Origin: Acidobacteriota bacterium
Lineage (GTDB): Bacteria > Acidobacteriota > Blastocatellia > Pyrinomonadales > Pyrinomonadaceae
NCBI GenBank assembly: GCA_040006435.1
Contig: JBDTWZ010000001.1
Coordinates: 1 to 53,580 of the forward strand
Direction: 5' to 3'
DNA: 53,580 nt
Part shown: positions 1 through 52,260 of the stretch, piece by piece
Position numbering within the stretch: position 1 is the stretch's first letter
Layout of the letters: each line of letters starts with the position of its first letter
Program-made: the position numbers and the translations under genes
The notes under the pieces: model-generated
Told to the model about the DNA's origin: nothing
The model's input: only the letters and a program-made list of their open reading frames with translations
Databases searched by the model: none

Positions 1-113
1 ACGACGCTCTGCTTGTTTCCTGAATCATAGAACATTCGCAGGTCCGGAAGGCGGGCTTGCCCCCGCTCATTCGTTGCGTGAGAATATGCTTCACGCAGAC
101 AAAGAGGAATGCC

Positions 114-1808
114 ATGGTAACCAACTTAATTTCTTATTCCCTCACGCCTGATTTGCAGGACGCCGTGCAAGCTGAGGTCGAATCCTGGAAAGCGGACGAC
201 AAGGTCGCGCGCATTTGGGCGCGGGACGCTTCTGTCTGGACCGGCAACGACGAAGAACAGTGGCTCGGATGGCTGGATATTGTCGATCAAGAGTTAGGTG
301 ATCTTAAGAAATACCGAGACCTTGCCGCGGAAATCGAGCAAGCCGGATTCACAGACATTCTACTGATGGGAATGGGCGGCTCATCGTTGTGCCCCGAAGT
401 CCTCGCGATGACGTTTGGCAAAACAAACTTTCACATTCTCGACTCGACCGTGCCGGCGCGGGTCAAAGCCGTCGAGGACAAACTCGATCTCCCGAAAACT
501 CTTTTCATCGTCGCAAGCAAATCGGGCTCGACACTCGAGCCGAATTGTTTCAAACAATATTTCTTTGAACGCGTTTCTCAGATTTCCGAGACGCCCGGAA
601 AACAATTCGTCGCCATCACCGATCCCGGTTCGAAGATGGAGCAGATCGCGAAGGCCGATGGATTTCGACACATCTTCTACGGAAATCCGGAGATCGGGGG
701 GCGATTTTCGGCCCTGTCGGCGTTTGGCCTTGCGGCGGCTGCCTCGATGGGTTTGGATGTTGAGATCCTCTTGCAACGAGCCTCGGAGATGATTTCCGAA
801 TGCCGCAACCTCGTGCCGCAGGAAAATCCCGGCGCACCGCTTGGACTGATTCTCGGCGTATGCCATCGACATGGAAAGGATAAGCTGACGATCTTTGTTT
901 CGCCGGCGCTTCACGATGTCGGAGCGTGGCTCGAACAATTGATCGCCGAATCCACCGGCAAGAACGGCGTCGCGATAATTCCGGTGGATCGAGAGCCGAT
1001 GATCGACGCGGAGAATTATCACAGTGACCGGGTGTTCGTACACCTCGGTATGAAAGACTCGGCCACCGATGAGCGAATTCACCAAGGGTTGGAAGATATC
1101 GAACGCGCGGGACACCCGATGATCCGCATCGAACTCGAATCGCTCTATCACATCTCACAGGAATTTTTCCGTTGGGAGTTTGCGACAGCCGTCGCCGGTT
1201 CGGTGATGAAGATCAATCCGTTCAATCAGCCGGATGTCGAATCGGCAAAGATCGAGGCGCGGAGGATCACCGATCAGTATGAAGAGACCGGCTCGCTTCC
1301 CGACGAAACTCCGTTTTTCGAAGAGAGTGGAATCGCGTTATTCAGCAATGATGCGAACGTCGCGGCACTGGACGTTATCGCCGGTGATACCCGTTCGCTT
1401 GCCGGATATCTAAAAGCTCACATCTCGCGTATCGAGGCAAACGACTATTTCGCATTGCTCGCTTACGTTGAAATGAATTCGGAGAATGAAACTCTGTTGC
1501 AGGCCCTGCGCGAAACCGTCCTCAATCAGACCCTCGCTGCAACCTGTCTCGGCTTCGGTCCCCGATTCTTGCACTCTACCGGTCAGGCGTACAAGGGTGG
1601 CGGGAACAACGGAGTCTTTTTACAGATAACTGCCGACGACGAAGCCGATCTTCCGGTGCCGAAACAACAATATTCTTTTGGCATTGTGAAGTCGGCGCAG
1701 GCACGCGGCGACTTTCAGGTACTGCTGGATCGAGGACGGCGGGCGCTTCGTGTGCATTTACCGCCTGATGTTCGGAGCGGATTGTCTCGTCTTCTCGAGT
1801 GTCTCTGA
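114..1808 (+). CDS. pgi: glucose-6-phosphate isomerase
   Basis: Long ORF with SIS/PGI motifs MGMGGSSLCPEV and SKSGSTLEP. The ATG at 114 is preceded by AGAGGA and is preferred over the TTG at 57 used by the ORF track. Confidence 0.9.
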   Translation: MVTNLISYSLTPDLQDAVQAEVESWKADDKVARIWARDASVWTGNDEEQWLGWLDIVDQELGDLKKYRDLAAEIEQAGFTDILLMGMGGSSLCPEVLAMTFGKTNFHILDSTVPARVKAVEDKLDLPKTLFIVASKSGSTLEPNCFKQYFFERVSQISETPGKQFVAITDPGSKMEQIAKADGFRHIFYGNPEIGGRFSALSAFGLAAAASMGLDVEILLQRASEMISECRNLVPQENPGAPLGLILGVCHRHGKDKLTIFVSPALHDVGAWLEQLIAESTGKNGVAIIPVDREPMIDAENYHSDRVFVHLGMKDSATDERIHQGLEDIERAGHPMIRIELESLYHISQEFFRWEFATAVAGSVMKINPFNQPDVESAKIEARRITDQYEETGSLPDETPFFEESGIALFSNDANVAALDVIAGDTRSLAGYLKAHISRIEANDYFALLAYVEMNSENETLLQALRETVLNQTLAATCLGFGPRFLHSTGQAYKGGGNNGVFLQITADDEADLPVPKQQYSFGIVKSAQARGDFQVLLDRGRRALRVHLPPDVRSGLSRLLECL

Positions 1809-1897: not shown

Positions 1898-3847
1898 CTA
1901 GACACCAACCGTTTCGTCGTCTTCGATCAAATACGGCGAAACTGACGCCTTATCGATATCTTCTTCGAGAACCTTTGCGATCACAGGCAGAGACAGCGAA
2001 CGCGTTTTCTGGATTCCCGGAACTTCCTTTCCCTTCGCATAGACGGCGTGACGGCCGTTTTCCTGATACCACTCGGAAAGTGATGCCGTCTTGTGCATCT
2101 CTTCGATGATCTGCCGCCAGCCAACGCCGGTGTTGTATGCGCAAAAGCTGATCTCGCCTTCCTGCGTTCCGTACGGAATTACGCACATCTCGGTGCGGCG
2201 GAAGTCGTAGTTAAAAAGATCCTGGAACCACATTCCTTCGACACATAGAACGCGCCAAACGTCATCGTCGGATTTCTCGACCTTCATTCGATCGTTTCGG
2301 TCCGAGTTCGATGTCGTCGACGATGGTTTGAAAAGATTGATGATCTGCGAGATCGGGAATCCATCCGGAGCTTTCGCCGCGTCGTAATTGCGCATGATCG
2401 CCATCCCGAGTTGGGCCATCGTCAGCTTTTTGCCCCGGGCAGTATCGGTGATCGTCGCGACGTCCTTCATGAACTGCTCGTAGTTGAAAAATTCGAACAG
2501 CGATTTCGTCAGGCCGCTCTTTTTGTTGACGACCATCAGCGTGAATATCCCGCAATTCGGATGGCAATTGCACGACGACCAACCCCACGGAGCATCGGCA
2601 CCTTGCAGCATGTCCATGACGGATGTAAACGCGGAATAGCTGGACAGCGGAAACCAATCGCGCATCGGCTCGAGCACACCATCAAGCTGTTCTTTCAGAT
2701 CGTGCGTCATTCCCGCAAGTGTGTATCGCTGTTTGATGCGGTCCTCATCCGAAATGTCCTCATCGCGTCCGGTGAACGATACGGGCTGGAACGCGATCGT
2801 TTGAACCTTGTCGATGTTCTCCGCGGCAAATTTCACGATGCTGCCAATCCCGTTGTTGTTCCAGGAATTTACGATGGTCGTAACGAGCGTCACCTTAACA
2901 CCGACCGACGCGAGATTCTCGATCGCCTTGAGCTTGACGTCGAACAGATTGCCGACGCCACGATGCTCGTTGTCTTTCTCGTTGGTTCCGTCGAACTGAA
3001 GATAAACGCCGTGCTGGCCCGCTTCTTTCGCTGCCTTGCAAAACTCGATGTCCTCGGCATAACGGATGCCGTTAGTCGCGGCGAGAATCCGGTAGAATCC
3101 GACCTTCTTCGCGTAAGCAACGGCGTCGAGAAAGTATGGCGAGAGCGTCGGCTCGCCGCCTGAGAACAAAATGATGATCTGACGTTTTGGCTTGAACGAG
3201 ACGGCTCGATCGAGGATCGCTTTCGTATCTTCGAACGTCGGTTCGTGAACGTATCCAACCTGGTTCGCGTCCATAAAGCACGGATTGCACATCATGTTGC
3301 AGCGGTTGGTCAGATCTACGGTGAGCACCGCTCCGCGGCCGAACTTAATATCGCTCGTCCCGTGATGATGAACGTGTTTGTCCTCAGCCGCTTTGAAATC
3401 ACGTCCATAAAAAAGCGATTCGATACGGTTAAGAAAAGCGGAGTCGGTCGCCAGTACGTCAACGAACTCGCCGTGCGTTGTGCATGTCTTTCGCATCAGC
3501 ACCTGGCCGTTTTCTTCGACGATCTGGGCCTTGATCTCGCCCGGATGCGAATCCATCAAAATGTTCAGCGGAATGTCGCCGGAGATCACGCCGTTGCGGA
3601 CAGACTTTACGCATGAAGGACACAAGCTGTCGGTCTCGCGAGGAAATCCCAGCGGAGGCGCCGTACGTTCGTACGATTTCAAGAGCGGCTCGGCGGCCCA
3701 TGCGGGCTGTATCGACTCGCCTTCAGGAATCGCCTTATTGAGAGCCTGAAACGCCTTCCAGCCAAGATCGGCCATCTTTGAAACGGCCTTCGAACCTGTC
3801 TTGCCGTTCCCCTTTCCTTCACCTCGTCTGAAATTATCGCTAAACAT
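1898..3847 (-). CDS. large radical SAM enzyme with N-terminal Zn-ribbon-like segment and Cys-rich C-terminal half (possible tetraether-lipid-synthase-like protein)
   Basis: CNMMCNPC (CxxxCxxC) cluster motif, FSGGEPT SAM motif, N-terminal CPSC...CTTHGEF segment and C-terminal SSCNCHPNCG / CVIPYG...FCAYN cysteines. Start set at ATG 3847 (alternative 3775). The ORF-track extension to 4207 overlaps the divergent MOSC gene and is rejected. Confidence 0.85.
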   Translation of the reverse strand: MFSDNFRRGEGKGNGKTGSKAVSKMADLGWKAFQALNKAIPEGESIQPAWAAEPLLKSYERTAPPLGFPRETDSLCPSCVKSVRNGVISGDIPLNILMDSHPGEIKAQIVEENGQVLMRKTCTTHGEFVDVLATDSAFLNRIESLFYGRDFKAAEDKHVHHHGTSDIKFGRGAVLTVDLTNRCNMMCNPCFMDANQVGYVHEPTFEDTKAILDRAVSFKPKRQIIILFSGGEPTLSPYFLDAVAYAKKVGFYRILAATNGIRYAEDIEFCKAAKEAGQHGVYLQFDGTNEKDNEHRGVGNLFDVKLKAIENLASVGVKVTLVTTIVNSWNNNGIGSIVKFAAENIDKVQTIAFQPVSFTGRDEDISDEDRIKQRYTLAGMTHDLKEQLDGVLEPMRDWFPLSSYSAFTSVMDMLQGADAPWGWSSCNCHPNCGIFTLMVVNKKSGLTKSLFEFFNYEQFMKDVATITDTARGKKLTMAQLGMAIMRNYDAAKAPDGFPISQIINLFKPSSTTSNSDRNDRMKVEKSDDDVWRVLCVEGMWFQDLFNYDFRRTEMCVIPYGTQEGEISFCAYNTGVGWRQIIEEMHKTASLSEWYQENGRHAVYAKGKEVPGIQKTRSLSLPVIAKVLEEDIDKASVSPYLIEDDETVGV

Positions 3848-3955
3848 AATATTTGTCGGAGTGGGACGCACGAATCCCGGCGAACATCTTAACAAATATC
3901 TACCTGTCCTGCCCAATCTTGTGGCCCGTGGGCAAAATCGATATATTCGCCAATT

Positions 3956-4597
3956 ATGAGAGTTGTAACAGTTTCGGTGGGACAGCCGCAAATTGTTCAG
4001 ACTGGAAGCGAAGGATTTGTCCTCACGTCTATATTCAAGCATCGGGTTGACGGACGCGTGAGAGTGAATGAACTGAATCTTGCAGGCGATGCCCAGGCCG
4101 ACCTCACAGTACATGGCGGATGGAGCAAAGCTGTCTACGTTTACCCCGGTGAGCATTACGAATATTGGCGGAACGGGCTGCCGGAAATGGAACTGGGCGA
4201 TTCTCAATTCGGAGAGAACCTGACAACCGAAGGCTTGCTCGAAACCGAAGTATTTATCGGAGACAAAATTCGTATTGGAACAGCGGAGTTTGTCGTCACC
4301 GAACCCCGCATGCCGTGCTACAAACTCGGCATACGTTTTCGTCGAAAGGATATTCTTCGCCGGTTTCTACAGAGTCGAAAAAGCGGATTCTATCTTGCCG
4401 TAACAAAGACGGGGGAGCTTGCGGCCGGCGACGATATCGAAATTCTATCTCGAGATAAAAACGAGGTAACGGTCACGGATATCGTCAGGGTGTGGGTCCA
4501 GGACAAGGACGATCGAGAGACGATGGCGCGCGCTTTAAATATTGATGCGTTTCCCGAAAGCTGGAAGGAACCGTTCCGCGACCGACTCGCGGGTTAG
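3956..4597 (+). CDS. MOSC domain-containing protein (YiiM-like)
   Basis: 213 aa with typical MOSC beta-barrel motifs (GDAQADLTVHGG, TEPRMPCYKLG). The ATG start is divergent from the radical-SAM gene. Confidence 0.85.
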   Translation: MRVVTVSVGQPQIVQTGSEGFVLTSIFKHRVDGRVRVNELNLAGDAQADLTVHGGWSKAVYVYPGEHYEYWRNGLPEMELGDSQFGENLTTEGLLETEVFIGDKIRIGTAEFVVTEPRMPCYKLGIRFRRKDILRRFLQSRKSGFYLAVTKTGELAAGDDIEILSRDKNEVTVTDIVRVWVQDKDDRETMARALNIDAFPESWKEPFRDRLAG

Positions 4598-6035: not shown

Positions 6036-7346
6036 TTACTCGAAGGCCTCCAAATATTTCACGCCAGAACCGGTGTTGAATAGCACGACAGTTTCACCAT
6101 CTTTAACCTCGGCTCGATCGATCAGTGTTAGTAAGGCGGGCAGGCACGCAGCACCCTCGGGAGCGGCAAAAACACCTTCGGTCGCACCGATCTCGCCGAC
6201 GGCTTTCACTAATTCTTCATCGCTCACAGCAATCGCGGTTCCACCCGATGCTCGGATAGCATCTAGGATCAAAAAATCGCCGATGGCTTTTGGAACTCGA
6301 AGGCCGGACGCGACGGTCGAAGCATTCTCGAATTCGTCAGCAAATCTGTCTCCTTTCTCGAACGCCCGCACTATCGGAGCGCAAGTTGCCGATTGGACCG
6401 TTACCATTCTTGGACGGCGCGAATCGATCCAGCCCATCTGCTCCATCTCGTCGAACGCTTTCCACATTCCGATCAAGCCGGTGCCGCCGCCGGTGGGATA
6501 AATGATCACGTCGGGTAAGTAGCGGGCTCTCTGATCGGGCACCACCCCGTCATCCGCTTCGCGGATGCCACCCCTCCTTAAACCAGGAGGGGAGCTATGT
6601 GCCAAACTCCCCTCCTGGTTTAAGGAGGGGTGGCCGAGGCTTTGCGAGGCCGGGGTGGTGCTGTAAGCGCCAAACTGTTCGAAGAGCTCATACCCCATCG
6701 TCTTCTTGCCTTCGACACGATACGGCTCTTTCAGCGTAGATACGTCAAACCAGCCTTCGGCCTCTTTTCTCTCGGCGACTATCTTTCCGCAATCCGTGAT
6801 CAAGCCGTCGACGAGAGTGACGTGCGCTCCCGTCTGCTCGCATTCGACGATGTTCGCTCGCGGAGTGTCGGATGGCATAAAGATAAATGCTTCCATTCCG
6901 GCTCGTGCGGCATACGCTGCCATCGCTCCCGCGGCGTTCCCCGCCGAAGGGACGGCGACCTTTTTCACGCCTAGCTCCTTTGCCATCGAGATCGCGGCCG
7001 TCATGCCGCGGGCTTTGAAGCTCTGCGTCGGGTTCTGGCCCTCGTCCTTGATGAACAGGTTTAGTTTGATCGGCAGTTTTTCCGCAAGTCGGCCGGCTTT
7101 TAGAAGCGGTGTCCAGCCTTCGCCAAAACTAATAATGTTGTCGGGGTTTTCAACCGGCAACACTTCGCGGTATCGCCACAATGACGATTCCCTCGACGCG
7201 AGTGCATCCGGCGTTATTGTCGCCGCAGCTTTTTCGAGGTCATATCGAACGAGCAGCGGCTTGCCGCATTCGACGCAGAGATTCTGCAGTTTATTCGCTT
7301 CGTGCCGCAGTCCGCAGAGCGCGCATTCGAGGTGTGTGACGTTCAT
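6036..7346 (-). CDS. thrC: threonine synthase carrying a 41-codon in-frame repeat insertion
   Basis: N-terminal Cys4 ribbon (CALCG...CVECG), PLP lysine motif TQSFKARG and glycine loop YPTGGGTGLIG. Start set at ATG 7346 (MNVTHLE), which removes the overlap with the upstream gene. Confidence 0.9.
   Translation of the reverse strand: MNVTHLECALCGLRHEANKLQNLCVECGKPLLVRYDLEKAAATITPDALASRESSLWRYREVLPVENPDNIISFGEGWTPLLKAGRLAEKLPIKLNLFIKDEGQNPTQSFKARGMTAAISMAKELGVKKVAVPSAGNAAGAMAAYAARAGMEAFIFMPSDTPRANIVECEQTGAHVTLVDGLITDCGKIVAERKEAEGWFDVSTLKEPYRVEGKKTMGYELFEQFGAYSTTPASQSLGHPSLNQEGSLAHSSPPGLRRGGIREADDGVVPDQRARYLPDVIIYPTGGGTGLIGMWKAFDEMEQMGWIDSRRPRMVTVQSATCAPIVRAFEKGDRFADEFENASTVASGLRVPKAIGDFLILDAIRASGGTAIAVSDEELVKAVGEIGATEGVFAAPEGAACLPALLTLIDRAEVKDGETVVLFNTGSGVKYLEAFE
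6539..6661. repeat. 123-bp nested palindromic element inside thrC
   Basis: Outer 11-bp inverted repeat GCACCACCCCG/CGGGGTGGTGC (6539-6549, 6651-6661). Inner perfect 27-bp inverted repeat (6568-6594, 6607-6633) with a 12-nt loop. Each inner arm contains its own 8-bp hairpin CCCCTCCT-TAAACC-AGGAGGGG. Confidence 0.9.
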
Positions 7347-7383
7347 AGACCGAATCAATATAGCTCGAGCAGCGAGCTCCGGG

Positions 7384-8064
7384 TCACTTCTTCCAAACAA
7401 ATTCTTTGAACAAATTGAAGGCGGCATTAAAGCCGAGTGAGAGGGTACCGCTTCGAACGCCATCTTTCCAATCGTATCGATCCGGGTACCACGTTTCGTA
7501 GGCGATGATGCTCGACGTGAATGTTCCGGCTAAGTTCGGGACGCCGATGACACGCTTACCATACCTATCACGCGCCGTGACGGGCGAGATGAGTACGTTC
7601 CGGATGCGGGCGGACACGCTTTTTTTCCGACTGCGATAGAAATGACTGTCCAATTTCATCGCTTCGTCGAGACCAAACTTCGTAGTTTGTTTGATCGCAT
7701 TCTTACCAAAGTTGGATGCGACGCGGCGCCCAAAACCTTCCCATTTCGTTCCCCACTCTGCCGGCGAATTACGCCAGGTAGAAATTCCCGCGGTCGCGAT
7801 CATTCTTCCAAGAGCGAACGGCCCAACGGTGCTGTTGATGAACCGCTTTTGGCGCGTAGCAGCGGTAGGTCGAACATAGTCAGTAGACGGCTTCACCGTG
7901 AATAGCCCGGGCTGAACCGTCGACCTTTGGAGTTCTTTATTCTGGTCTTTATCCGCAAGGTCGGTTGCGGTCGTTGGATCTGGTGTCGGCGTCGGTGTGG
8001 GGTCCTGCGCTAGTGTGACAGACGTCGCGAACAGAAGAGTCATTAGCAAAAAGTGCGGTTTCAT
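7384..8064 (-). CDS. hypothetical secreted protein
   Basis: Signal peptide MKPHFLLMTLLFATSVTLAQ followed by a PTPTPTPDP linker. No recognisable catalytic motif. Confidence 0.6.
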   Translation of the reverse strand: MKPHFLLMTLLFATSVTLAQDPTPTPTPDPTTATDLADKDQNKELQRSTVQPGLFTVKPSTDYVRPTAATRQKRFINSTVGPFALGRMIATAGISTWRNSPAEWGTKWEGFGRRVASNFGKNAIKQTTKFGLDEAMKLDSHFYRSRKKSVSARIRNVLISPVTARDRYGKRVIGVPNLAGTFTSSIIAYETWYPDRYDWKDGVRSGTLSLGFNAAFNLFKEFVWKK

Positions 8065-8092: not shown

Positions 8093-8791
8093 CTAAGAGC
8101 TCTTTAGCATCGGCTTCAGCTCTTTATAAATATTCACCATCATGATCTTCGTACCCTCGGCGTTCGGGTGGATGCCATCGGCTTGATTCAATTCTCTCTT
8201 GAGCGCGATGTTCTCCAAAAGGAACGGCAGGTATGCGACCTTGTGCGTCGTCGCGAGATCTGGGAAAGCGTTCGAGTATTCCCTCTGGTAATCCGCGCCC
8301 ATCGTCGGCGGCGCGAGCATTCCGCACAAGAGCACAGCGACATTTTTCGCCTTCGCTTTGCGAATGATCCTATCGAGATTCGTTCTCATCTTCGCAACCG
8401 GAACACCCCGAAGCAGATCGTTTGCACCGAGCTCAAGAACAATGATCTGAACATTCTCCTGTTCGAGAATCCAATCGGCGCGCTCGAGACCGCCAAGGCT
8501 CGTGTCGCCTGAGACACCTGCATTCACAACCTCATAATTGTATCCGTCGGCATTCAAGCGTTCCTGCAAAAGATAGGGGTATGACTCGCGTTCGGTGAGG
8601 CCAAACCCCGCGGTCAGGCTGTCGCCGAACGCGACGATCTTTGGCCGATTCGCCGTCACCTCCGGCGTCTTCAAAGGTTTGTTTGATCCAACGCCGATCT
8701 CGGACGGACGCCCACCCGAGGAACACGCGGCCGCCAGTGACCAGAGAAATATGAAACTTAGAAATGCTGTGTTTCGAATAATATGATTCAT
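8093..8791 (-). CDS. tesA: SGNH/GDSL hydrolase, TesA-like arylesterase/thioesterase
   Basis: Blocks FGDSLTAG, GANDLL and DGIHPN, plus a signal peptide. It is divergent from an ABC ATPase and FtsX permease pair, as in the E. coli tesA-ybbA-ybbP arrangement. Confidence 0.8.
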   Translation of the reverse strand: MNHIIRNTAFLSFIFLWSLAAACSSGGRPSEIGVGSNKPLKTPEVTANRPKIVAFGDSLTAGFGLTERESYPYLLQERLNADGYNYEVVNAGVSGDTSLGGLERADWILEQENVQIIVLELGANDLLRGVPVAKMRTNLDRIIRKAKAKNVAVLLCGMLAPPTMGADYQREYSNAFPDLATTHKVAYLPFLLENIALKRELNQADGIHPNAEGTKIMMVNIYKELKPMLKSS

Positions 8792-8843
8792 GTGAAACTA
8801 AATAATATGCTACGCGATTTAGTAAGCTTTGGATGCAGATTCT

Positions 8844-8937
8844 TTGAGGTGTGAGGTATGAAGTATAAGCGGTGAACTAAAAAGAGCCCGGTCAAAGGTT
8901 CTTTCATCATTCACCATGCATACTTCACACTTCACCG
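8844..8937 (+). repeat. heptamer-periodic GTGA/TCAC hairpin element (copy 1), ending 6 nt before the ybbA ATG
   Basis: Left arm GAGGTGT GAGGTAT GAAGTAT AAGCGGT, core CCGGTCAAA, right arm TTCATCA TTCACCA TGCATAC TTCACAC TTCACCG. The arms are partly complementary (GTGTGAGGTATG against CATACTTCACAC). Confidence 0.65.
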
Positions 8938-8943
8938 TTTTTT

Positions 8944-9609
8944 ATGATCCAACTGAACTCAGTCACAAAAACCGTCCGCTCGGGGACGGAAAATCTCACT
9001 ATCTTGTCCGACGTTTCGCTCGACATTCCCGGAGGGCAGTTTGTCGCATTGACCGGGGCGTCCGGCAGCGGCAAATCGACTCTGCTCGGTTTGATCGCCG
9101 GTCTGGATGCACCAAGTTCCGGAACGATCCTGATCGACGGTGACGACATAACAAGTATAAGCGAGGACGGTCTGGCAGAGATCCGAAGCGCAAAGATCGG
9201 GTTCGTATTCCAGTCGTTTCATCTGATCCCCAGTCTTACGGCGCTGGAGAACGTTCTTATTCCAATGGAGATCAGGGGGCTCAGCGACGCCGGTGATCGG
9301 GCGTCCGAGCTTTTGCGAGATGTTGACCTGACCGATCGGGGCCATCATTATCCGGCGGAGCTTTCGGGCGGCGAGCAACAGCGTGTCGCGATAGCTCGTG
9401 CATTTGCGAACCGGCCAAAGATCCTTCTCGCGGACGAACCGACCGGTAATCTCGATTCGAAAAACGGCCGGCACATTTTTGAGTTAATGACCCAGCTTCA
9501 TACGGAGCGGGCCGTGACACTTGTTCTCGTAACGCACGATCACGGGTTGGCGGCTGAGGCACAGCGTCAGATCGTTTTGAAAGACGGACGGGTGATTAGC
9601 GATGAGTGA
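8944..9609 (+). CDS. ybbA: ABC transporter ATP-binding protein (LolD/YbbA-like)
   Basis: Walker [10 protein letters not shown], signature LSGGEQQR, Walker [10 protein letters not shown]. Symbol assigned by synteny with tesA and the FtsX permease. Confidence 0.85.
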
Positions 9610-9690
9610 CGAGGTATGAGCGTCGTCGCGAGAATCGCCGCCGGTCAAACTCTTTTCACTTTTCACTTTTCACTCGTCACTCATCACTCG
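9599..9690 (+). repeat. heptamer-periodic GTGA/TCAC hairpin element (copy 2), spanning the ybbA stop and ending 7 nt before the ybbP ATG
   Basis: Perfect 13-bp inverted repeat GATGAGTGACGAG (9601-9613) / CTCGTCACTCATC (9673-9685). Core CCGGTCAAA. Tandem 7-mers ACTTTTC ACTTTTC ACTCGTC ACTCATC ACTCG (9658-9690). Confidence 0.8.
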
Positions 9691-9697
9691 CTTTATT

Positions 9698-12223
9698 ATG
9701 CGCTTCATCCTCAACCTAACTCGCCGCGAAATCCGCTCATCATGGCGCCGACTGTTATTTTTCTTCCTGTGCATTGCACTCGGTGTCGGTTCCGTCGTCG
9801 CGTTGAGATCGTTGATCCAGAATCTAACCCGCGCCGTCGGAACGGACGCCCGTGCTCTCATGACGGCTGACATCGATATCAGCTCGACAAATAATTTCAC
9901 ACCAACCGAGATTTCGAAGATAGAGACCGCGGTAACAGAATCGGGGATCGTCGATGGCCGAAACGAAACCATCACGACATCGTCGATGGTCCGGCCTTCG
10001 GACCCCGCCAACTCAAACGTAAAACTTGTCGAGCTCAAGGGAATCGAACCGCCGTTCCCGCTGGTTGGCAGTTTTGAGCTCGACGACGGAACGCCCTTTG
10101 ATTTTTCATTGCTTGAAGACAACGGAGTGATCCTCGCGAAAATTCTGCTCGAGGATCTGAATGTAAAAGTGGGTGACCGGATCCGCATTGGAGAAGGTGA
10201 ATTTCAGATACGAGGGATATTCGACCAGGAGCCGGGCGGCACGAGCGGATTTCGCCTGGGAGGCCGCGTCTTTATCGAGAAGAAAGCCTTCGATGACGCG
10301 GGCATCACGAGAAACGCCAGCCGCGTGCGCCGCCGTATCTTGTATCGCTTGACCGACAATCCGACCGAGCTTGTTCGCCAGCTTCGCGAAGCCTTGAAGG
10401 GAACGACCGTAACAGTTGGGTCGTACCGCGAGACCCAGGAAAATCTGAGCGAACAATTTGAGAGGACGGAAAATTACCTTTCGCTGACCGGGCTGCTGAT
10501 CCTCGTCCTTGGCGGCGTCGGGGTATGGAACGTTGCTCGAGCGTTCGTTGAGCAAAAAAGAAAGTCCGTTGCAGTTCTGAAGTGTCTCGGTGCCGGCGGT
10601 GGGCGGATCATTACCGTTTATCTGTTGCAGATCCTCACTCTCGGCTTTGTCGGAAGCATATTCGGAGTTCTTTTTGCACAGCTCGCGTTGCTGTTCGTCC
10701 GATGGCGTTTTGTCGAGGCACTTCCGGAAAAGATGACTTATGCCATCAACCTCTCTACGGTGATTCAAGGCGTCACGCTTGGCGTACTGATCTCGCTGCT
10801 GTTCTCTGCTTTGCCTCTCCTGCAAGTTCGAAACATAAAACCGAAGCTTCTGCTTCGCGATGAAAACAACTCCTCCATCCGACGGCTCGACTTCACGAAA
10901 TGGCTCTTTGGCGCGGTCTCCCTGCTCGGGCTTCTTGGGGTGGCGGTTTGGCAGGCAGGCTCGGTGAAAGTCGGCGCGTTTTTCCTGGGTGGCCTGGCCG
11001 CTACCTCCGCCGTTCTCTATTTGACCGCTTTAGTCCTGACATGGCTGCTTCGCCGATTTCGTCGCGTCGGTCCGTTCGCCTTGTCGCAGGCCGTAAACTC
11101 GCTCTACCGGCCGGGCAACCAAACCCGCACGATCCTGCTCGCTGTCGGGCTCGGAGCATTCGTCGTCCTCGCGGTCCAGTCGCTGCAGGCAAACCTCGTC
11201 AGAGAATTCGACTTCACAAGAAACCGACATCTGCCAAGCTTATTCTTTGTCGATATTCAGAAAAGCCAGATCGAAGCTCTTGCTCAGCTTATCCAGTCAC
11301 ATATCGGCGAGAAGCCCGAAACCATCCCGACCATCCGGGCGCGGATTTCGCACGTAAACGGCGAGCCATTCGACTTTGCTCAGCGCGAAACGCGTCAGCA
11401 GCAAGGCCAGATCGGGCGCGAGTTTGCCGTAACCTATCGCGCCGAGATGGACACGAATGAGAGCGTTCTCAGCGGCAAATGGTGGAATGCGGATCCGGAT
11501 AATGTACCCGAAGTTTCGGTCGAAGAAGAGATGGCTGGCCGGTTAAAGGTCTCGCCGGGCGACTCGATGACGTTCGACATTTCCGGCCGCCGGGTCACAG
11601 CGCGGGTTGCGAACATCAGGAAGTTGGATCTGCGCAATACACGAACGGCGTTTGTCTTTGTCTTTCGTCCCGGCGCTCTGGAAAAAGCACCGCAGACATT
11701 TGCCGCGACAATACTCAAACGCTCGTCAGCGACCGACCGCCAGCGGCTTCAGCGCGATGTACTCGAAGCATATCCGAACGTGCAGATCTTCGACGTGGCA
11801 GATATCGTCGCGACCGTACAAAAGCTCGTCGGCAACTTTGTGCTTGCGATATCTTTTGTTGGCAGCTTTGTGATCTTGAGTGGGATCTTGATCCTCATCG
11901 GGTCGGTCGCACTCACGAAATCCCAGCGGATCTACGAGAACGCAATATTGAAAACACTCGGAGCAAAGCGTCCCACTTTGACGGCGATCCTTTTCGCTGA
12001 ATACGGGCTGCTAGGATTGCTCTCCGGACTGATCGGCGCCGGTTTCGCGACGGTCCTTTCCTACACCGTAAGCCGTTATCTCTTACAGATCGATTGGGAA
12101 TTCGACCCGTTCCTGGCCGTAGGCGGGGTACTCGTGACGCTAGTGATAGTGATGCTGGTCGGCGCTGCGGCGAACTTTGACGTGCTCTTCAGAAAGCCCC
12201 TTTCCACCCTGCGATCGCAGTGA
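9698..12223 (+). CDS. ybbP: ABC transporter permease, FtsX family (YbbP-like, duplicated FtsX domains)
   Basis: 841 aa with two blocks of hydrophobic helices separated by large soluble loops. Lies immediately downstream of the ATPase. Confidence 0.85.
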   Translation: MRFILNLTRREIRSSWRRLLFFFLCIALGVGSVVALRSLIQNLTRAVGTDARALMTADIDISSTNNFTPTEISKIETAVTESGIVDGRNETITTSSMVRPSDPANSNVKLVELKGIEPPFPLVGSFELDDGTPFDFSLLEDNGVILAKILLEDLNVKVGDRIRIGEGEFQIRGIFDQEPGGTSGFRLGGRVFIEKKAFDDAGITRNASRVRRRILYRLTDNPTELVRQLREALKGTTVTVGSYRETQENLSEQFERTENYLSLTGLLILVLGGVGVWNVARAFVEQKRKSVAVLKCLGAGGGRIITVYLLQILTLGFVGSIFGVLFAQLALLFVRWRFVEALPEKMTYAINLSTVIQGVTLGVLISLLFSALPLLQVRNIKPKLLLRDENNSSIRRLDFTKWLFGAVSLLGLLGVAVWQAGSVKVGAFFLGGLAATSAVLYLTALVLTWLLRRFRRVGPFALSQAVNSLYRPGNQTRTILLAVGLGAFVVLAVQSLQANLVREFDFTRNRHLPSLFFVDIQKSQIEALAQLIQSHIGEKPETIPTIRARISHVNGEPFDFAQRETRQQQGQIGREFAVTYRAEMDTNESVLSGKWWNADPDNVPEVSVEEEMAGRLKVSPGDSMTFDISGRRVTARVANIRKLDLRNTRTAFVFVFRPGALEKAPQTFAATILKRSSATDRQRLQRDVLEAYPNVQIFDVADIVATVQKLVGNFVLAISFVGSFVILSGILILIGSVALTKSQRIYENAILKTLGAKRPTLTAILFAEYGLLGLLSGLIGAGFATVLSYTVSRYLLQIDWEFDPFLAVGGVLVTLVIVMLVGAAANFDVLFRKPLSTLRSQ

Positions 12224-22168: not shown

Positions 22169-22183
22169 TCTTAGCGATTGTCG

Positions 22184-22501
22184 CGGAGCGACCACATGCA
22201 TTTAGCCGTGGCCTTAAGGCCACGGCTTCCGACGACCCGTTCCTGCCGCATCAGCGGTAGTTGGTTCAATTGCCGCTAACGCGGCAAGAATTACTTGCAT
22301 CCTCCAACCGTGGCCTGAAGGCCACGGCTAAAGGCGTCTGCCCGCTACGCGGTCAGCTCGCCGGATCGAGGGTCGAGGCGACGCGGTCGGGTCGAGGCAA
22401 GGTGGGCGAGGCAAGGTCGTCGCGTAGCGACCGCATGCATTTAGCCGTGGCCTTAAGGCCACGGTTTTCCGACGACCCCGTTCCTGCCGCGTCAGCGGTA
22501 G
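22184..22501. repeat. cluster of three REP units (alternating orientation, BIME-like)
   Basis: Units of about 80 nt. Each has a GTAG-containing head (CGCGTAGCGACC), hairpin core GCCGTGGCC-loop-GGCCACGGC (cores at 22205-22226, 22308-27, 22444-64) and a second small hairpin CTGCCGC-NTCA-GCGGTAG. The middle unit is inverted. Confidence 0.9.
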
Positions 22502-22978: not shown

Positions 22979-23050
22979 TCTACCGCTGAGGCGGCAATGT
23001 GACCGTGGCCTAAAGGGCCACGGCTAAATGCGTGCGGCCGCTACGCGGCT
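22979..23050. repeat. REP unit (inverted relative to 22419-22501)
   Basis: CTACCGCTGAGGCGGCA...CCGTGGCCTAAAGGGCCACGGCTAAATGCGTGCGGCCGCTACGCGG. This is the reverse complement of the REP consensus, including the GTAG head. Confidence 0.9.
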
Positions 23051-23273
23051 GCTACCACATTTCGAGTTTGGTCCGCGGCCATCTTAGAAAGGCATCGACA
23101 AACTCGTCTTTAATTTTTCTGAATTGTTCCGAAATGCATCAGCATCCGCACGCCGAGCGACATCGCCGGTCATCCATTCAGGTCACGAAAGCTCGCACGG
23201 ACAGATGCATGTAGGGGGTAATCGGCTCCCGCGCTTGGTTCCAAGGGCACTTTCGGTTAATCCTACGTAGAGC

Positions 23274-31426: not shown

Positions 31427-31528
31427 GTGTCTATTATAGACGATGCACGATCGAACTCTTTTTATTCCCTGAGACTTCTCTTATAATAGCCCGTCGAACG
31501 TATCGATCATCCCTGTTATGACTTGTTT

Positions 31529-33499
31529 ATGAAGATCAACGACTTTGTAGTCCGCTTTGCGAATGTGAACGGTACCGGTTCGGCATCGGCCAACGCACTG
31601 TTTACAAAGGCAGTGTTTCGCATGGGCGTGCCGGTGACGCCGAAGAATATCTTTCCGTCGAATATCCAGGGGCTGCCGACGTGGTACGAGGTGCGTATTT
31701 CGGAAGGCGGACATCTCGGCCGCCGCGAGGGCGTCGATCTGATGATCGCGGTCAATCCGCAGTCGATGAAAAAGGATTACGCCGATGTTCGCGAGGGCGG
31801 CTATTTTCTTTACGACTCCTCGAAGCCCCTCGCACCCGGTTACGATCGGACCGACATCACCCATATCGGCATCCCGCTGATGACTCTCTGCAATGCAGAG
31901 TTTACCGACGCACGCCAGCGCCAGCTTTTCAAGAACATCGTCTATATCGGAGCCCTTGTCGCTCTGTTCGGGATCGAGTTTGAAATGCTCGAGCAGCTCG
32001 TCGGCGAACAGTTCCGCGGTAAGGAAAAATTGATCGAGCCTAACATCCGGGCGCTCAACATCGGGGTGAAATACACGCGGGAGAATTTCGAATGTCCGTT
32101 AGACATACGCGTCGAACGCCGCGACCTGCTCGGCGATAAAGTTCTTTACAGCGGCAATTCGGCGTGCGCACTCGGTGCGATCTATGCCGGAGCAACCGTC
32201 GCCGCGTGGTATCCGATCACACCTTCAACATCGGTCGTCGATGCGTTTGCCAAGTATGCCGCTAAGTACCGCGTCGACGCCGAGACGGGTATGAACAACT
32301 ACGCGATCGTGCAGGCCGAGGACGAACTCGCGGCGATCGGAATGGTAATGGGCGCGTGCTGGAACGGCGCACGTGCGTTCACCGCGACGAGCGGCCCGGG
32401 CATCTCTCTGATGAACGAGTTCCTCGGCCTCGGCTATTTTGCCGAGGTGCCGACGGTGCTAATAGACGTACAACGAACCGGCCCATCCACCGGCATGCCG
32501 ACGCGGACACAGCAATCCGACATTTTGCTCGCGGCGTATGCGTCGCACGGCGATACAAAACATCCGCTGTTGTTCCCAGCCTCGCCGAAGGAATGTTTCG
32601 AGATGACGGCCGACGCCTTCGATCTGACCGAGCGTCTTCAGACGCCGGTCATCGTCATGACGGATCTCGATCTCGGGATGAACGATCACATCACCGAGCC
32701 TCTTGTTTGGGATGACGCCCGTAAATTTGACCGCGGCAAGGTCCTTACAGCCAGACATCTTGAACGCCTCGGCGGTGCGGCACTGGCTGATATCGTCGAG
32801 GGGATGGAGAACGAAACCGACGGCGACGCGTTCGCGGGCAGCGCCATTGAACAGTTTCGCGGTAAATTTGGCCGCTATCTTGACATCGACGACGACGGTA
32901 TTCCGTACCGCACAGTTCCCGGCGTTCATCCGACGCGCGGGGCATATGTCACACGCGGCTCATCGCGTGACGAGTACGCAGTCTACACCGAGGACGGCGA
33001 CGTCTATCGTCGCAACATGGACCGCCTCGCCCGCAAGTGGGACACGGCGAAGGAGCTGGTGCCGCAGCCGGAATTTTATGGCGACGCGGGGACGGGGCGA
33101 CACGGAGAAGGGGAGAAAGGGAGAAAGGGAGAGGGGCCGACCTCTGACTCGTCACTCGTCACTCGTCCCTCATCACTAAAAAATGACGCCGTCATTTTTT
33201 TCGGAACCTCCACATACGCAGCGATCGAGGCATTGGAGCTATTAGCCGATGAGGGAATCCGACTCGACGCGATGCGAGCCCGTGGATTCCCTTTTGGAAA
33301 GTCGTTTCGTGATTTCATCGACTCACACGACCGCGTCTTCGTCATCGAACAAAACCGCGATGCGCAGTTTCGCAGCCTGATGATGATCGAATTAGGAGTC
33401 GACGCATCAAAGCTTGTTTCGGTCCTAAACTACGACGGGATGCCGATCACGGCGGACAACATCTTCATACAGATTAATTCATTTTCTCAGGACCAATGA
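31529..33499 (+). CDS. korA: 2-oxoacid:ferredoxin oxidoreductase, fused gamma-alpha subunit, with an in-frame repeat insertion
   Basis: N-terminal gamma-like VNGTGSASANALF...PSNIQGLPTWYEVR, and alpha domain with TGPSTGMPTRTQQSD. ATG 31529 preferred over TTG 31523. No beta-subunit gene follows. Confidence 0.85.
   Translation: MKINDFVVRFANVNGTGSASANALFTKAVFRMGVPVTPKNIFPSNIQGLPTWYEVRISEGGHLGRREGVDLMIAVNPQSMKKDYADVREGGYFLYDSSKPLAPGYDRTDITHIGIPLMTLCNAEFTDARQRQLFKNIVYIGALVALFGIEFEMLEQLVGEQFRGKEKLIEPNIRALNIGVKYTRENFECPLDIRVERRDLLGDKVLYSGNSACALGAIYAGATVAAWYPITPSTSVVDAFAKYAAKYRVDAETGMNNYAIVQAEDELAAIGMVMGACWNGARAFTATSGPGISLMNEFLGLGYFAEVPTVLIDVQRTGPSTGMPTRTQQSDILLAAYASHGDTKHPLLFPASPKECFEMTADAFDLTERLQTPVIVMTDLDLGMNDHITEPLVWDDARKFDRGKVLTARHLERLGGAALADIVEGMENETDGDAFAGSAIEQFRGKFGRYLDIDDDGIPYRTVPGVHPTRGAYVTRGSSRDEYAVYTEDGDVYRRNMDRLARKWDTAKELVPQPEFYGDAGTGRHGEGEKGRKGEGPTSDSSLVTRPSSLKNDAVIFFGTSTYAAIEALELLADEGIRLDAMRARGFPFGKSFRDFIDSHDRVFVIEQNRDAQFRSLMMIELGVDASKLVSVLNYDGMPITADNIFIQINSFSQDQ
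33104..33200 (+). repeat. composite periodic repeat inside korA (purine octamers, ACTCGTC heptamers, 11-bp palindrome)
   Basis: GGAGAAGG GGAGAAAG GGAGAAAG GGAGAGGG (33104-33135). ACTCGTC x3 plus CCTCATC ACT (33147-33177), shared with 9672-9688. AAAAAATGACG-C-CGTCATTTTTT (33178-33200). Confidence 0.8.
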
Positions 33500-51012: not shown

Positions 51013-51207
51013 TTTAAATTGCCCCAACCTTTAGGTCGGGGTCACATGAGCGCTAAGCTCCGGCTTTAGCCGAAATATAAACAAAGCTTCCTTTTTGGCT
51101 ATAGGCGAATTCAGCTAAAGCTAAAGGGATTTTTTTTTCGATCGCATTCGGCTAAAGCCGGGTTCCGGACTCTTCTTACCCCGACCTAAAGGTCGGGGCA
51201 ATTTAAA
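51013..51207. mobile_element. 195-bp MITE-like palindromic element
   Basis: 30-bp terminal inverted repeats TTTAAATTGCCCCAACCTTTAGGTCGGGGT / ACCCCGACCTAAAGGTCGGGGCAATTTAAA (1 mismatch). Internal inverted repeat CCGGCTTTAGCCGAA (51060-74) / TTCGGCTAAAGCCGG (51147-61). No ORF. Confidence 0.8.
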
Positions 51208-51937: not shown

Positions 51938-52003
51938 GAATGAAGTTTAGCAGACGCGTACCCGCAAATCGGCGAGATGCCGACAAGGCACGCCGCGTCG
52001 GGC

Positions 52004-52175
52004 CGCGTAGCGGCCGCTCGCATTTAGCCGTGGCCTTCAGGCCACGGATGAAGGTCAACAAATCTTGCCGCGTCAGCGGCAATTGAGAATTCGTGCGGTC
52101 GCTACGCGACGCAATTGATTTTTCCGACTACCCGTGGCCTAAGGGCCACGGCTAAACTCGATTGACCGCGACGGG
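52004..52175. repeat. REP doublet of the same family as at 22.2-23.0 kb
   Basis: CCGCGTAGCGGCCGCTCGCATTTAGCCGTGGCCTTCAGGCCACGG...CTTGCCGCGTCAGCGGCAA, then an inverted, partly rearranged unit with core CCGTGGCCTAAGGGCCACGGCTAAA (52132-52155). Confidence 0.85.
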
Positions 52176-52260
52176 GGCAAAGAATTTGTAGGCCGTCGGC
52201 GTGAGCTCAGTCAAGATTGAAGCAGTGCGTGCATTTCACGAGATGGGTTAAAATATCTCC

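Follow-up and report, generated by a model that had tools for sequence, protein, structure and literature searches.

Introduction

What is the palindromic element that occupies most of the spacer between two divergent genes, a tesA-like and a ybbA-like one, in a 53,580 bp stretch of DNA from a member of the Pyrinomonadaceae (Acidobacteriota; 54% GC)? The element, here called E1, has arms built of seven-nucleotide units and ends a few nucleotides before the ybbA-like start codon. The original prediction, made on this stretch (hereafter the window), took it for a possible control hairpin acting on translation or transcription. We assign a probability of about two in three to another answer, namely, that a lineage-specific, fast-turning family of palindromes, with inverted arrays of heptameric simple sequence repeats (SSRs) as arms, has one of its copies in E1 (8845-8937). 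This answer stands on the structure and periodicity of E1, its membership in a family, its turnover among relatives, and the occurrence of such elements in other contexts, all of which were observed.

Structure and Periodicity of E1

The left arm of E1 (8846-8873, + strand) is formed by the purine-rich heptamers GAGGTGT, GAGGTAT, GAAGTAT, and AAGCGGT, and the right arm (8903-8937, +) by the pyrimidine-rich heptamers TTCATCA, TTCACCA, TGCATAC, TTCACAC, and TTCACCG. Between them lies a centre (8874-8902, +) which in the minimum free energy (MFE) structure makes an apical stem, 8881-8888/8897-8904, closed by the loop 8889-8896 (CGGTCAAA); the 9-mer CCGGTCAAA is located at 8888-8896 of this centre. 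A run of six T (8938-8943, +) separates the hairpin from the ybbA-like ATG at 8944, and the stem itself ends 9 nt upstream of that codon (CCGTTTTTT followed by ATG). None of the Shine-Dalgarno (SD) strings GGAG, GAGG, and AGGA was found within the 40 nt upstream of the ATG. The description given in the original prediction agrees with the sequence and the fold regarding the heptamer arms, the CCGGTCAAA core, the spacer as mostly one structured element, and the end of the right arm 6 nt before the ATG without an SD between. Its heptamer listing was correct, and only the start that it placed at 8844 has to be moved, since GAGGTGT begins at 8846 and positions 8844-8845 are TT.

The periodicity was evaluated by counting self-matches. 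Over 8844-8937 there were 44 matches at lag 7 against 21.4 expected (z 5.8), a value reached by 0 of 5000 shuffles; lag 14 gave z 4.5, and among lags 1-13 none but 7 stood out. Both arms contributed, the left with a lag-7 z of 3.8 and the right with 4.8. Tandem Repeats Finder (TRF) detected period 7 at 8845-8866, with a modest score of 30 for the left arm. Heptameric SSRs are recognised by at least 3 tandem 7-nt units beyond chance, and here five units make up the right arm, while the left arm has three that are alike and a fourth that is degenerate.

The partial complementarity of the arms, also claimed in the original prediction, was found as two inverted repeats, 8851-8876/8910-8935 (26 nt, 77%) and 8845-8860/8919-8934 (16 nt, 88%). 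We performed the folding-energy calculation that had been suggested for this locus. The RNA MFE of 8840-8950 was -37.5 kcal/mol on the + strand and -38.8 kcal/mol on the - strand, compared with an average of -20.5 kcal/mol in shuffles (z -5.4 and -5.7, respectively), and 0 of 200 shuffles folded as well. The fold has three tiers over 8845-8934, with an outer stem (8845-8860/8919-8934), a middle stem (8871-8876/8910-8915), and the apical stem mentioned above. It is confirmed, then, that the hairpin is real and that its sequence is as described, barring small corrections of coordinates. Permissive searches of Rfam 15 over 8600-9200 returned matches at chance level only (best E 0.31, far below gathering scores), and at gathering thresholds the whole window gave tRNA-Pro alone and no family for E1.

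Related Copies in the Window

Among short tandem periods in the window, period 7 stands out, and its two stronger tracts belong to two further elements, E2 and E3. E2 (9598-9690, +) was recognised by its inverted repeat, its fold, and its homology to E1 and E3, and it lies in the spacer between the ybbA-like gene and the ybbP-like gene that follows it. Its left arm, AGCGATGAGTGACGAG, holds the ybbA stop codon, and its right arm consists of TTTTCAC three times, TCGTCAC, and TCATCAC; at its centre (9641-9649) stands the same 9-mer CCGGTCAAA as in E1. The arms pair over 16 nt with 94% complementarity (fold z -3.1). The stem stops 9 nt upstream of the ATG of the ybbP-like gene at 9698, which also is SD-less (CGCTTTATT followed by ATG).

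E3 (33080-33179, +) was identified by TRF, alignment, and translation inside the korA-like coding sequence (CDS) 31523..33499, a homologue of the alpha subunit of 2-oxoglutarate:ferredoxin oxidoreductase. Its first part is an array of purine 8-mers (GGAGAAAG) and its second an array of TCGTCAC heptamers; the whole is translated in frame as GTGRHGEGEKGRKGEGPTSDSSLVTRPSSLKN. As an RNA hairpin E3 was rejected: its fold z is +0.35, shuffles fold equally well, and its 8-mer and heptamer arms are not complementary. A GACGC direct repeat flanks the element and may be due to chance.

The three elements are connected by common words. E1 and E2 have in common GAGGTATGA, CCGGTCAAA, and TCTTTYCA plus the TCAC heptamers; E2 and E3 have in common CACTCGTCNCTCATCACT; and E3 has GCGACACGGAGAAKGGGAGA in common with the E2 of a relative (L002). 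Each of the local alignments E1/E2, E2/E3, and E3/L002-E2 scored above 1000 of 1000 composition-preserving shuffles. In addition, the right arms of E2 and E3 are multicopy in the source metagenome, where the depth of their words is 160-230 compared with about 13 for the genome, and several contigs at genome-like depth carry these words with unrelated flanks. The alignments and the right-arm depth together describe multiple dispersed copies of recognisable similarity.

Turnover in Orthologous Spacers

The tesA-ybbA spacer of the window (W) was compared with the orthologous spacers of four relatives whose YbbA is 89-93% identical (L001, L002, L086, and L087). All four have a hairpin at the position of E1, placed after a conserved block that contains TATGCTACGCGATTTAGTAAGMTTTGGATGCA, and with the window included the five orthologues fold at -25 to -44 kcal/mol with differing heptamers. 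In L002, for instance, the units are GAATGGT GAACGGT / TTCACCA TTCACCG, and across the orthologues the GAGGTG strings of the window are replaced by GAAGTAT, GAATTAT, GAATGGT, or GAACGGT. The run of T after the hairpin is present in the window and L001 and absent in L002, L086, and L087. Covariation could be analysed on these five sequences only; RNAalifold predicted a consensus of 29 pairs, with double compensatory changes at 4. In the same alignment G.U pairs in the ybbA sense occupy 9 stem positions against 5 for A.C, a difference that is not significant.

In other relatives the element itself changes. L003 (YbbA 88%) has a 57-nt spacer with no element, and its ybbA is SD-less too; L102 (86%) has an unrelated palindrome, similar to the repetitive extragenic palindromic (REP) sequences, in the place of E1; and in L004 (84%) two arms are found about 150 nt apart. 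Variation reaches the level of strains. In two sequencing runs, X3 and X4, read from Logan contigs and not from reads, the flanking DNA is about 93% identical to that of the window. The X4 strain has only 33 nt, similar to the left arm (ATTTCTTAAAAGTGTGAACTATGAAGTGTGAAC), directly before the ATG, and in the X3 strain E1 is replaced by a different 82-nt stretch and E2 by a different 151-nt stretch. Unit number and content are therefore polymorphic at one site among close relatives, both in the five orthologues and in the two strains.

The ybbA-ybbP junction leads to a similar picture. In distant relatives (L005 and L088-L092) the two genes overlap as ATGA, that is, as a translationally coupled junction, and in the window they are parted by 88 nt of E2. 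Taking into account this overlap, E2 is an insertion or expansion into a coupled junction.

Arrays of another heptamer, AAATTGS, precede the start of ybbA by about 100 nt in two Nitrospirota loci (L053, 5870-5907; L059, 5873-5901) and in an unclassified metagenome locus (L145, 9881-9911). These arrays are probably orthologous to one another.

In-Frame Elements at the korA Site

The site of E3 was inspected in 23 homologues of the korA-like protein, between ELVPQPEF and GVIFFGTSTYAA. Some of them have no insert at all and others have inserts of several types, about 15-60 aa long; seen as DNA, the inserts of many Pyrinomonadaceae are heptamer-armed palindromes. In L083 the insert is GAAGGAT five times / ATCCTTC four times (-65 kcal/mol) and in L085 it is GGAATGC / GCATTCC (-84 kcal/mol); L082 and L084 are arranged likewise. 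In a related strain the site is occupied by arrays of GGAGACA and CCAAAAT, and the contig of that strain breaks there. As in the Rickettsia palindromic elements (RPEs), E3 and its korA counterparts are palindromes in frame that are absent from some homologues; E1 is intergenic.

The same protein family has a second hypervariable stretch of low complexity, rich in NGNG and 0-50 aa long, which corresponds to about 32760-32830 of the window (alignment columns about 240-290); it is short in the korA-like protein of the window and long in many homologues. Heptamer arrays of the GGGTTTT/CCAAAAT type were also seen inside open reading frames (ORFs), both in L004 (3568-3603) and in three korA homologues (P0001, P0004, and P0006), where the peptide IQNPKSKIQN results from reading them through all three frames.

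Census of Heptamer Tracts

To see where such tracts lie relative to genes, 1.6 Mb of fetched loci were scanned for tracts that spanned 4 units or more and reached a lag-7 identity of 80% or higher, genes being crudely defined as the longest ORFs. The scan gave 48 period-7 tracts, distributed as 24 inside long ORFs, 18 nearest to a gene end (many of them no more than about 5 nt away), and 6 nearest to a gene start. Half of the tracts are intergenic, although about 85% of the sequence falls within the longest-ORF calls. Heptamers of the GTGAA/TTCAC type also occur in other acidobacterial loci (L117, L119, and L134).

The original prediction had proposed to test family members for enrichment immediately upstream of start codons, and it named a lack of positional bias as one of two observations that together would refute its reading. 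The crude census shows no bias towards starts, with 6 of 48 tracts nearest to a start, so that the first of these two observations was made. The general rule that pyrimidine heptamers stand upstream of start codons was discarded on this count and on that of the window, where among about 45 ORFs only ybbA and ybbP have them.

Origin and Possible Effect of E1

Considering these results together, elements of the family may arise and change through replication slippage in steps of 7 nt, and hairpin-templated correction or gene conversion would keep the arms complementary. Some dispersal to unlinked sites would also occur, because related copies are found at such sites. If E1 is transcribed, it would put a stem of -37 kcal/mol at 9 nt from an AUG that is unstructured, U-rich, and SD-less. 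The resulting effect on ybbA-ybbP could be a nonspecific modulation, by stabilisation through the 5′ stem, by offering a target to a double-strand RNase, or by partial termination at U6, and it would differ from strain to strain as E1 changes. Any effect of E1 on expression is likely to be incidental or of a tuning kind.

Several observations weigh against the repeat-family reading and lower the probability that we give to it. At an identity of 85% or more, the source metagenome has a single copy of the E1 sequence itself, without excess depth, so that the place of E1 in the family rests on short common motifs and on architecture. Tract density was 7.9 per 100 kb in Pyrinomonadaceae-related loci versus 2.3 elsewhere, an enrichment inflated by the picking of loci around known copies. 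No target-site duplication was evident for E1, and the sites of L003, L102, and X4 are replaced and not cleanly empty; E1 may therefore have been mobile or may have evolved purely in place. The compensatory upkeep in the five orthologues, together with the distance of exactly 9 nt that in both E1 and E2 parts the stem from an SD-less ATG, could reflect selection on leader structure, and the G.U excess is a weak hint of constraint at the RNA level. E1 is probably transcribed as the 5′ leader of ybbA; we infer its presence in the mRNA from its location between a conserved block at 8792-8839, common to relatives with differing elements or none, and the ATG. A search for RNA-seq or metatranscriptome runs containing this locus returned none.

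A wider reading goes beyond E1. The heptamer-armed palindromes might form an undescribed class of dispersing, self-homogenising repeats in the Pyrinomonadaceae, perhaps in wider Acidobacteriota, which would colonise leaders, intercistronic junctions (splitting the ybbA/ybbP ATGA), and surface loops of enzymes, and whose leader copies would act as strain-variable expression dials of the hmw kind described below. The loops colonised would be that of the korA-like protein and possibly that of a threonine synthase, in the latter case by a different palindrome. This extension is speculative and we consider it doubtful as a whole. No paper describing such heptamer repeats in Pyrinomonadaceae was found in a literature search on repeats in the family.

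Alternative Explanations

Next to the repeat family, the most probable explanation, though still an unlikely one, makes E1 a leader hairpin dedicated to the cis-regulation of ybbA, controlling translation initiation or transcription, possibly by an interaction of GAGGUG and CACC with the ribosome. In its favour are the strength of the hairpin (-37.5 kcal/mol, z -5.4), the compensatory changes that maintain it in five orthologues, the distance of 9 nt from its end to an SD-less AUG (the same as for E2 and ybbP), and a slight excess of G.U in the ybbA sense. The ribosomal part of the proposal is not borne out by the details of the sequence: the GAGGTG strings, thought to pair with the 16S tail, are 85-98 nt upstream of the ATG and are not conserved in the orthologues, because the spacers of relatives hold other heptamers, no element, half an element, or an unrelated one; and the right arm, thought to mimic that tail, never contains CCUCC. 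An SD-sequestering hairpin needs an SD about 5-13 nt from the start, and the stretch from the hairpin to the ATG has none. E1 as an SD/anti-SD switch is not supported. A dedicated control role of any kind, which the original prediction had offered as speculation, is difficult to reconcile with close relatives in which the element is missing (L003), replaced by an unrelated palindrome (L102), or halved (X4), and with the SD-less ybbA of L003, where there is no hairpin to account for it. The same family, moreover, is present within CDSs and at gene ends, and Rfam has no match. Folding-energy asymmetry between strands and G.U counts were also examined in 16 elements and gave no consistent strand preference; a palindrome at the DNA level therefore fits as well as an RNA structure.

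Less probable still is that E1 works as an intrinsic terminator or attenuator, made of the hairpin plus U6, or as the 3′ end of a small RNA arising from the conserved block, in either case limiting read-through into ybbA. An intrinsic terminator has a compact GC-rich stem, a short loop, and a conserved U-tract, and the stem of E1 is long, branched, and AU/GU-rich. The T6 that directly follows the hairpin in the window and L001 invites the idea, and the periodic arms permit register-shifted alternative stems, one of which (8867-8876/8931-8940) sets the U-run flush with the stem; however, the T-run is lacking in L002, L086, and L087, neither E2 nor E3 has a comparable U-tract, and a consensus terminator scan over 8600-9900 made no call at E1.

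To the same low level we assign the possibility that the heptamer arrays are protein-binding sites, similar to operators or iterons, or a spacer that sets the geometry of divergent tesA/ybbA promoters and makes transcription phase-variable. The heptamers are not conserved between orthologues, and a sequence-specific binder is unlikely for that reason; the conserved block upstream of E1 is a better promoter candidate, and the same arrays are found in CDSs and at 3′ ends. These points outweigh the direct repeats at a fixed 7-bp phase, their location within the divergent promoter region, the variation of unit number and content among strains, and the precedent of the Haemophilus influenzae hmw heptamer SSRs, which act upstream of genes as expression dials (PMC12721329). 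An artefact of chance or composition, for which nothing speaks except the modest TRF score of 30 of the left arm, is practically excluded by the shuffles (0/200 for the fold and 0/5000 for lag 7) and by the existence of related copies and orthologues.

Comparison with Known Repeat Systems

Heptameric SSRs are over-represented in many bacteria and enriched in their intergenic DNA. Close species have them at the same intergenic sites, but the length and sequence differ strongly from one species to the next; they sometimes appear as inverted pairs able to form stem-loops, and they have been ascribed to polymerase slippage (PMC4692102). Examples are GGGAATC in Xanthomonas and GGGGA(T/C)T and the STRR heptamers in Nostoc, Anabaena, and Calothrix (PMC4692102). 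E1 resembles them in its tandem 7-nt units, its intergenic position, and its variability between relatives at one site. Nevertheless, the SSRs of Xanthomonas and Nostoc are G-rich, prone to quadruplexes, and mostly one-armed, whereas the E1 family has GARGTRT / TTCACNN units, with regular purine and pyrimidine arms around a loop; the host here is an acidobacterium, and some copies are read in frame in proteins.

In Geobacter metallireducens, multicopy heptanucleotide elements (GGGACCG four times, at 49 sites, and MTYCTGA five times) lie between and within genes, and a regulatory role has been proposed for them and not shown (PMC2700814). The likeness consists in short heptamer arrays dispersed in and between genes. 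The units are different, the copy number of the Geobacter elements is fixed at 4-5, and those elements were not described as long two-armed hairpins.

A parallel for a leader position is the (ATCTTTC)n hairpin in the 5′ untranslated region of H. influenzae hmw1A/hmw2A, which is processed by RNase III, varies in repeat number, and makes expression dependent on the hairpin (PMC12721329). In both cases a heptamer SSR forms a long hairpin with a complementary arm upstream of a gene; the partner arm in hmw is purine- or G-rich. The pyrimidine-type arm is 5′ in hmw and 3′ in E1, and the downstream gene encodes a surface adhesin in the former and a housekeeping-type ABC transporter in the latter. Transcription, RNase III cleavage, and phase variation are experimental facts for hmw, whereas E1 is known from its sequence and predicted fold.

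RPEs are inserted in frame in metabolic genes (PMC10969869). [quoted passage not shown] RPEs differ in having a conserved family consensus and no tandem heptamers, and E1 itself is intergenic. Another difference is that at one site the sequence varies between close strains, which suggests turnover in situ.

The REP sequences are palindromes of 20-40 nt with a conserved GTAG or CGTC head and a high copy number (PMC3733652). E1 and E2 are intergenic palindromes like those of the REP, bacterial interspersed mosaic element (BIME), enterobacterial repetitive intergenic consensus (ERIC), and Correia-type families, which, when transcribed, can stabilise or terminate mRNAs and separate cistrons. The position of E2 between ybbA and ybbP is comparable to that of the REPs in malE-malF. 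Unlike those families, E1 is about 95 nt long, has no GTAG or CGTC at either end, and has internal heptamer periodicity; neither conserved terminal inverted repeats nor target-site duplications were found for it.

Genomic Setting

Among GTDB genomes the best matches to the YbbA of the window come from metagenome-assembled genomes (MAGs) of Pyrinomonadaceae and other Acidobacteriota (identity 70-93%), and a root-metagenome contig carries an identical copy. The gene upstream and divergent from ybbA (ORF 8093..8791, -) encodes a GDSL/SGNH esterase whose best NCBIfam match is TesA (acyl-CoA thioesterase I), and Pfam Lipase_GDSL was found for it on the identical contig. The ORF 8944..9609 (+) encodes an ABC ATPase that matches LolD and YbbA in NCBIfam, its stop codon (9607-9609) being located inside the left arm of E2; it is followed by the permease gene 9698..12223 (+), with YbbP as best NCBIfam match. 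All these matches are under the curated cut-offs, and the names are to be read at the level of homologues, at which the tesA and ybbA of the original prediction hold. The order of the divergent tesA and ybbA-ybbP genes is that of E. coli. Two small ORFs run across E1, 8788..8910 (-, 40 aa) and 8916..9143 (+, 75 aa), and these overlap real genes or sit out of frame.

Between the tesA-like start and E1 there is a block of 48 nt (8792-8839), which contains the TATGCTACGCGATTTAGTAAGMTTTGGATGCA mentioned above and is conserved in the window, L001, L002, L004, L086, L087, and L102, with variation past TTGGATGCA. This block is probably the site of the divergent tesA/ybbA promoters; for ybbA in particular, it is the sole part of the spacer common to relatives with different elements or none. 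The assignment is made from conservation, because a sigma-70 consensus scan over 8600-9900 gave no good match in the block, and neither promoter could be placed in it by eye. On the + strand the scan detected no promoter-like site within or just upstream of E1.

Nor is there an SD at the tesA-like start (region 8782-8796); only 8-12 nt upstream of this start, on the - strand, TATTAT/TATTTA forms an AT-rich stretch. Considering how near this stretch is to an SD-less start, the tesA-like mRNA could possibly be leaderless or have a very short leader.

Other Repeats in the Window

A perfect 28-nt inverted repeat (GCCACCCCTCCTTAAACCAGGAGGGGAG plus its complement, 12 nt apart) was found at 6567-6634, in frame within the threonine-synthase-like CDS 6036..7463 (-). 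In the alignment with the threonine synthase 2zsj, the query jumps from residue 265 to 316 where the chain only advances from 178 to 180; an insert of about 50 aa therefore holds the palindrome. This is a second RPE-like palindrome in frame, and it is not heptamer-periodic.

REP/BIME-like clusters are located at 22180-22470, 23004-23051, and 52002-52180, with CCGTGGCCTTAAGGCCACGG cores and GCCGCGTAGCGGCCGC...ATTTAG flanks in both orientations; a similar element is the one that replaces E1 in L102, and another adjoins a GGGATTT array of nine units in L082. At 51013-51207 there is a MITE-like pair of 38-nt inverted repeats (TTTAAATTGCCCCAACCTTTAGGTCGGGG...), 89% complementary and 119 nt apart. 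An 18-nt inverted repeat with 94% complementarity (ATAAAGGAGATGAAGGGG / CCCCTCCATCTCCTTTAT) occupies 1830-1884, where the ORFs 57..1808 (+) and 1898..4207 (-) converge, and is likely a bidirectional terminator, in which again a purine arm is followed by a pyrimidine arm.

Conclusions

A statistically solid hairpin beside a start codon turns out in E1 to be repeat DNA and not a bespoke riboregulator, a case that guards against over-reading such structures. In an uncultured family of soil acidobacteria, palindromes of heptameric SSRs change between strains whose flanks are about 93% identical, break up translationally coupled genes, and are tolerated in frame in enzymes of central metabolism. 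Since they break contigs and inflate "hypervariable" regions of proteins, these repeats affect both the assembly and the annotation of MAGs. They also bear on the origin of 7-nt repeats and on the upkeep of arm complementarity, and they may supply variation in expression and in protein loops at the level of strains.

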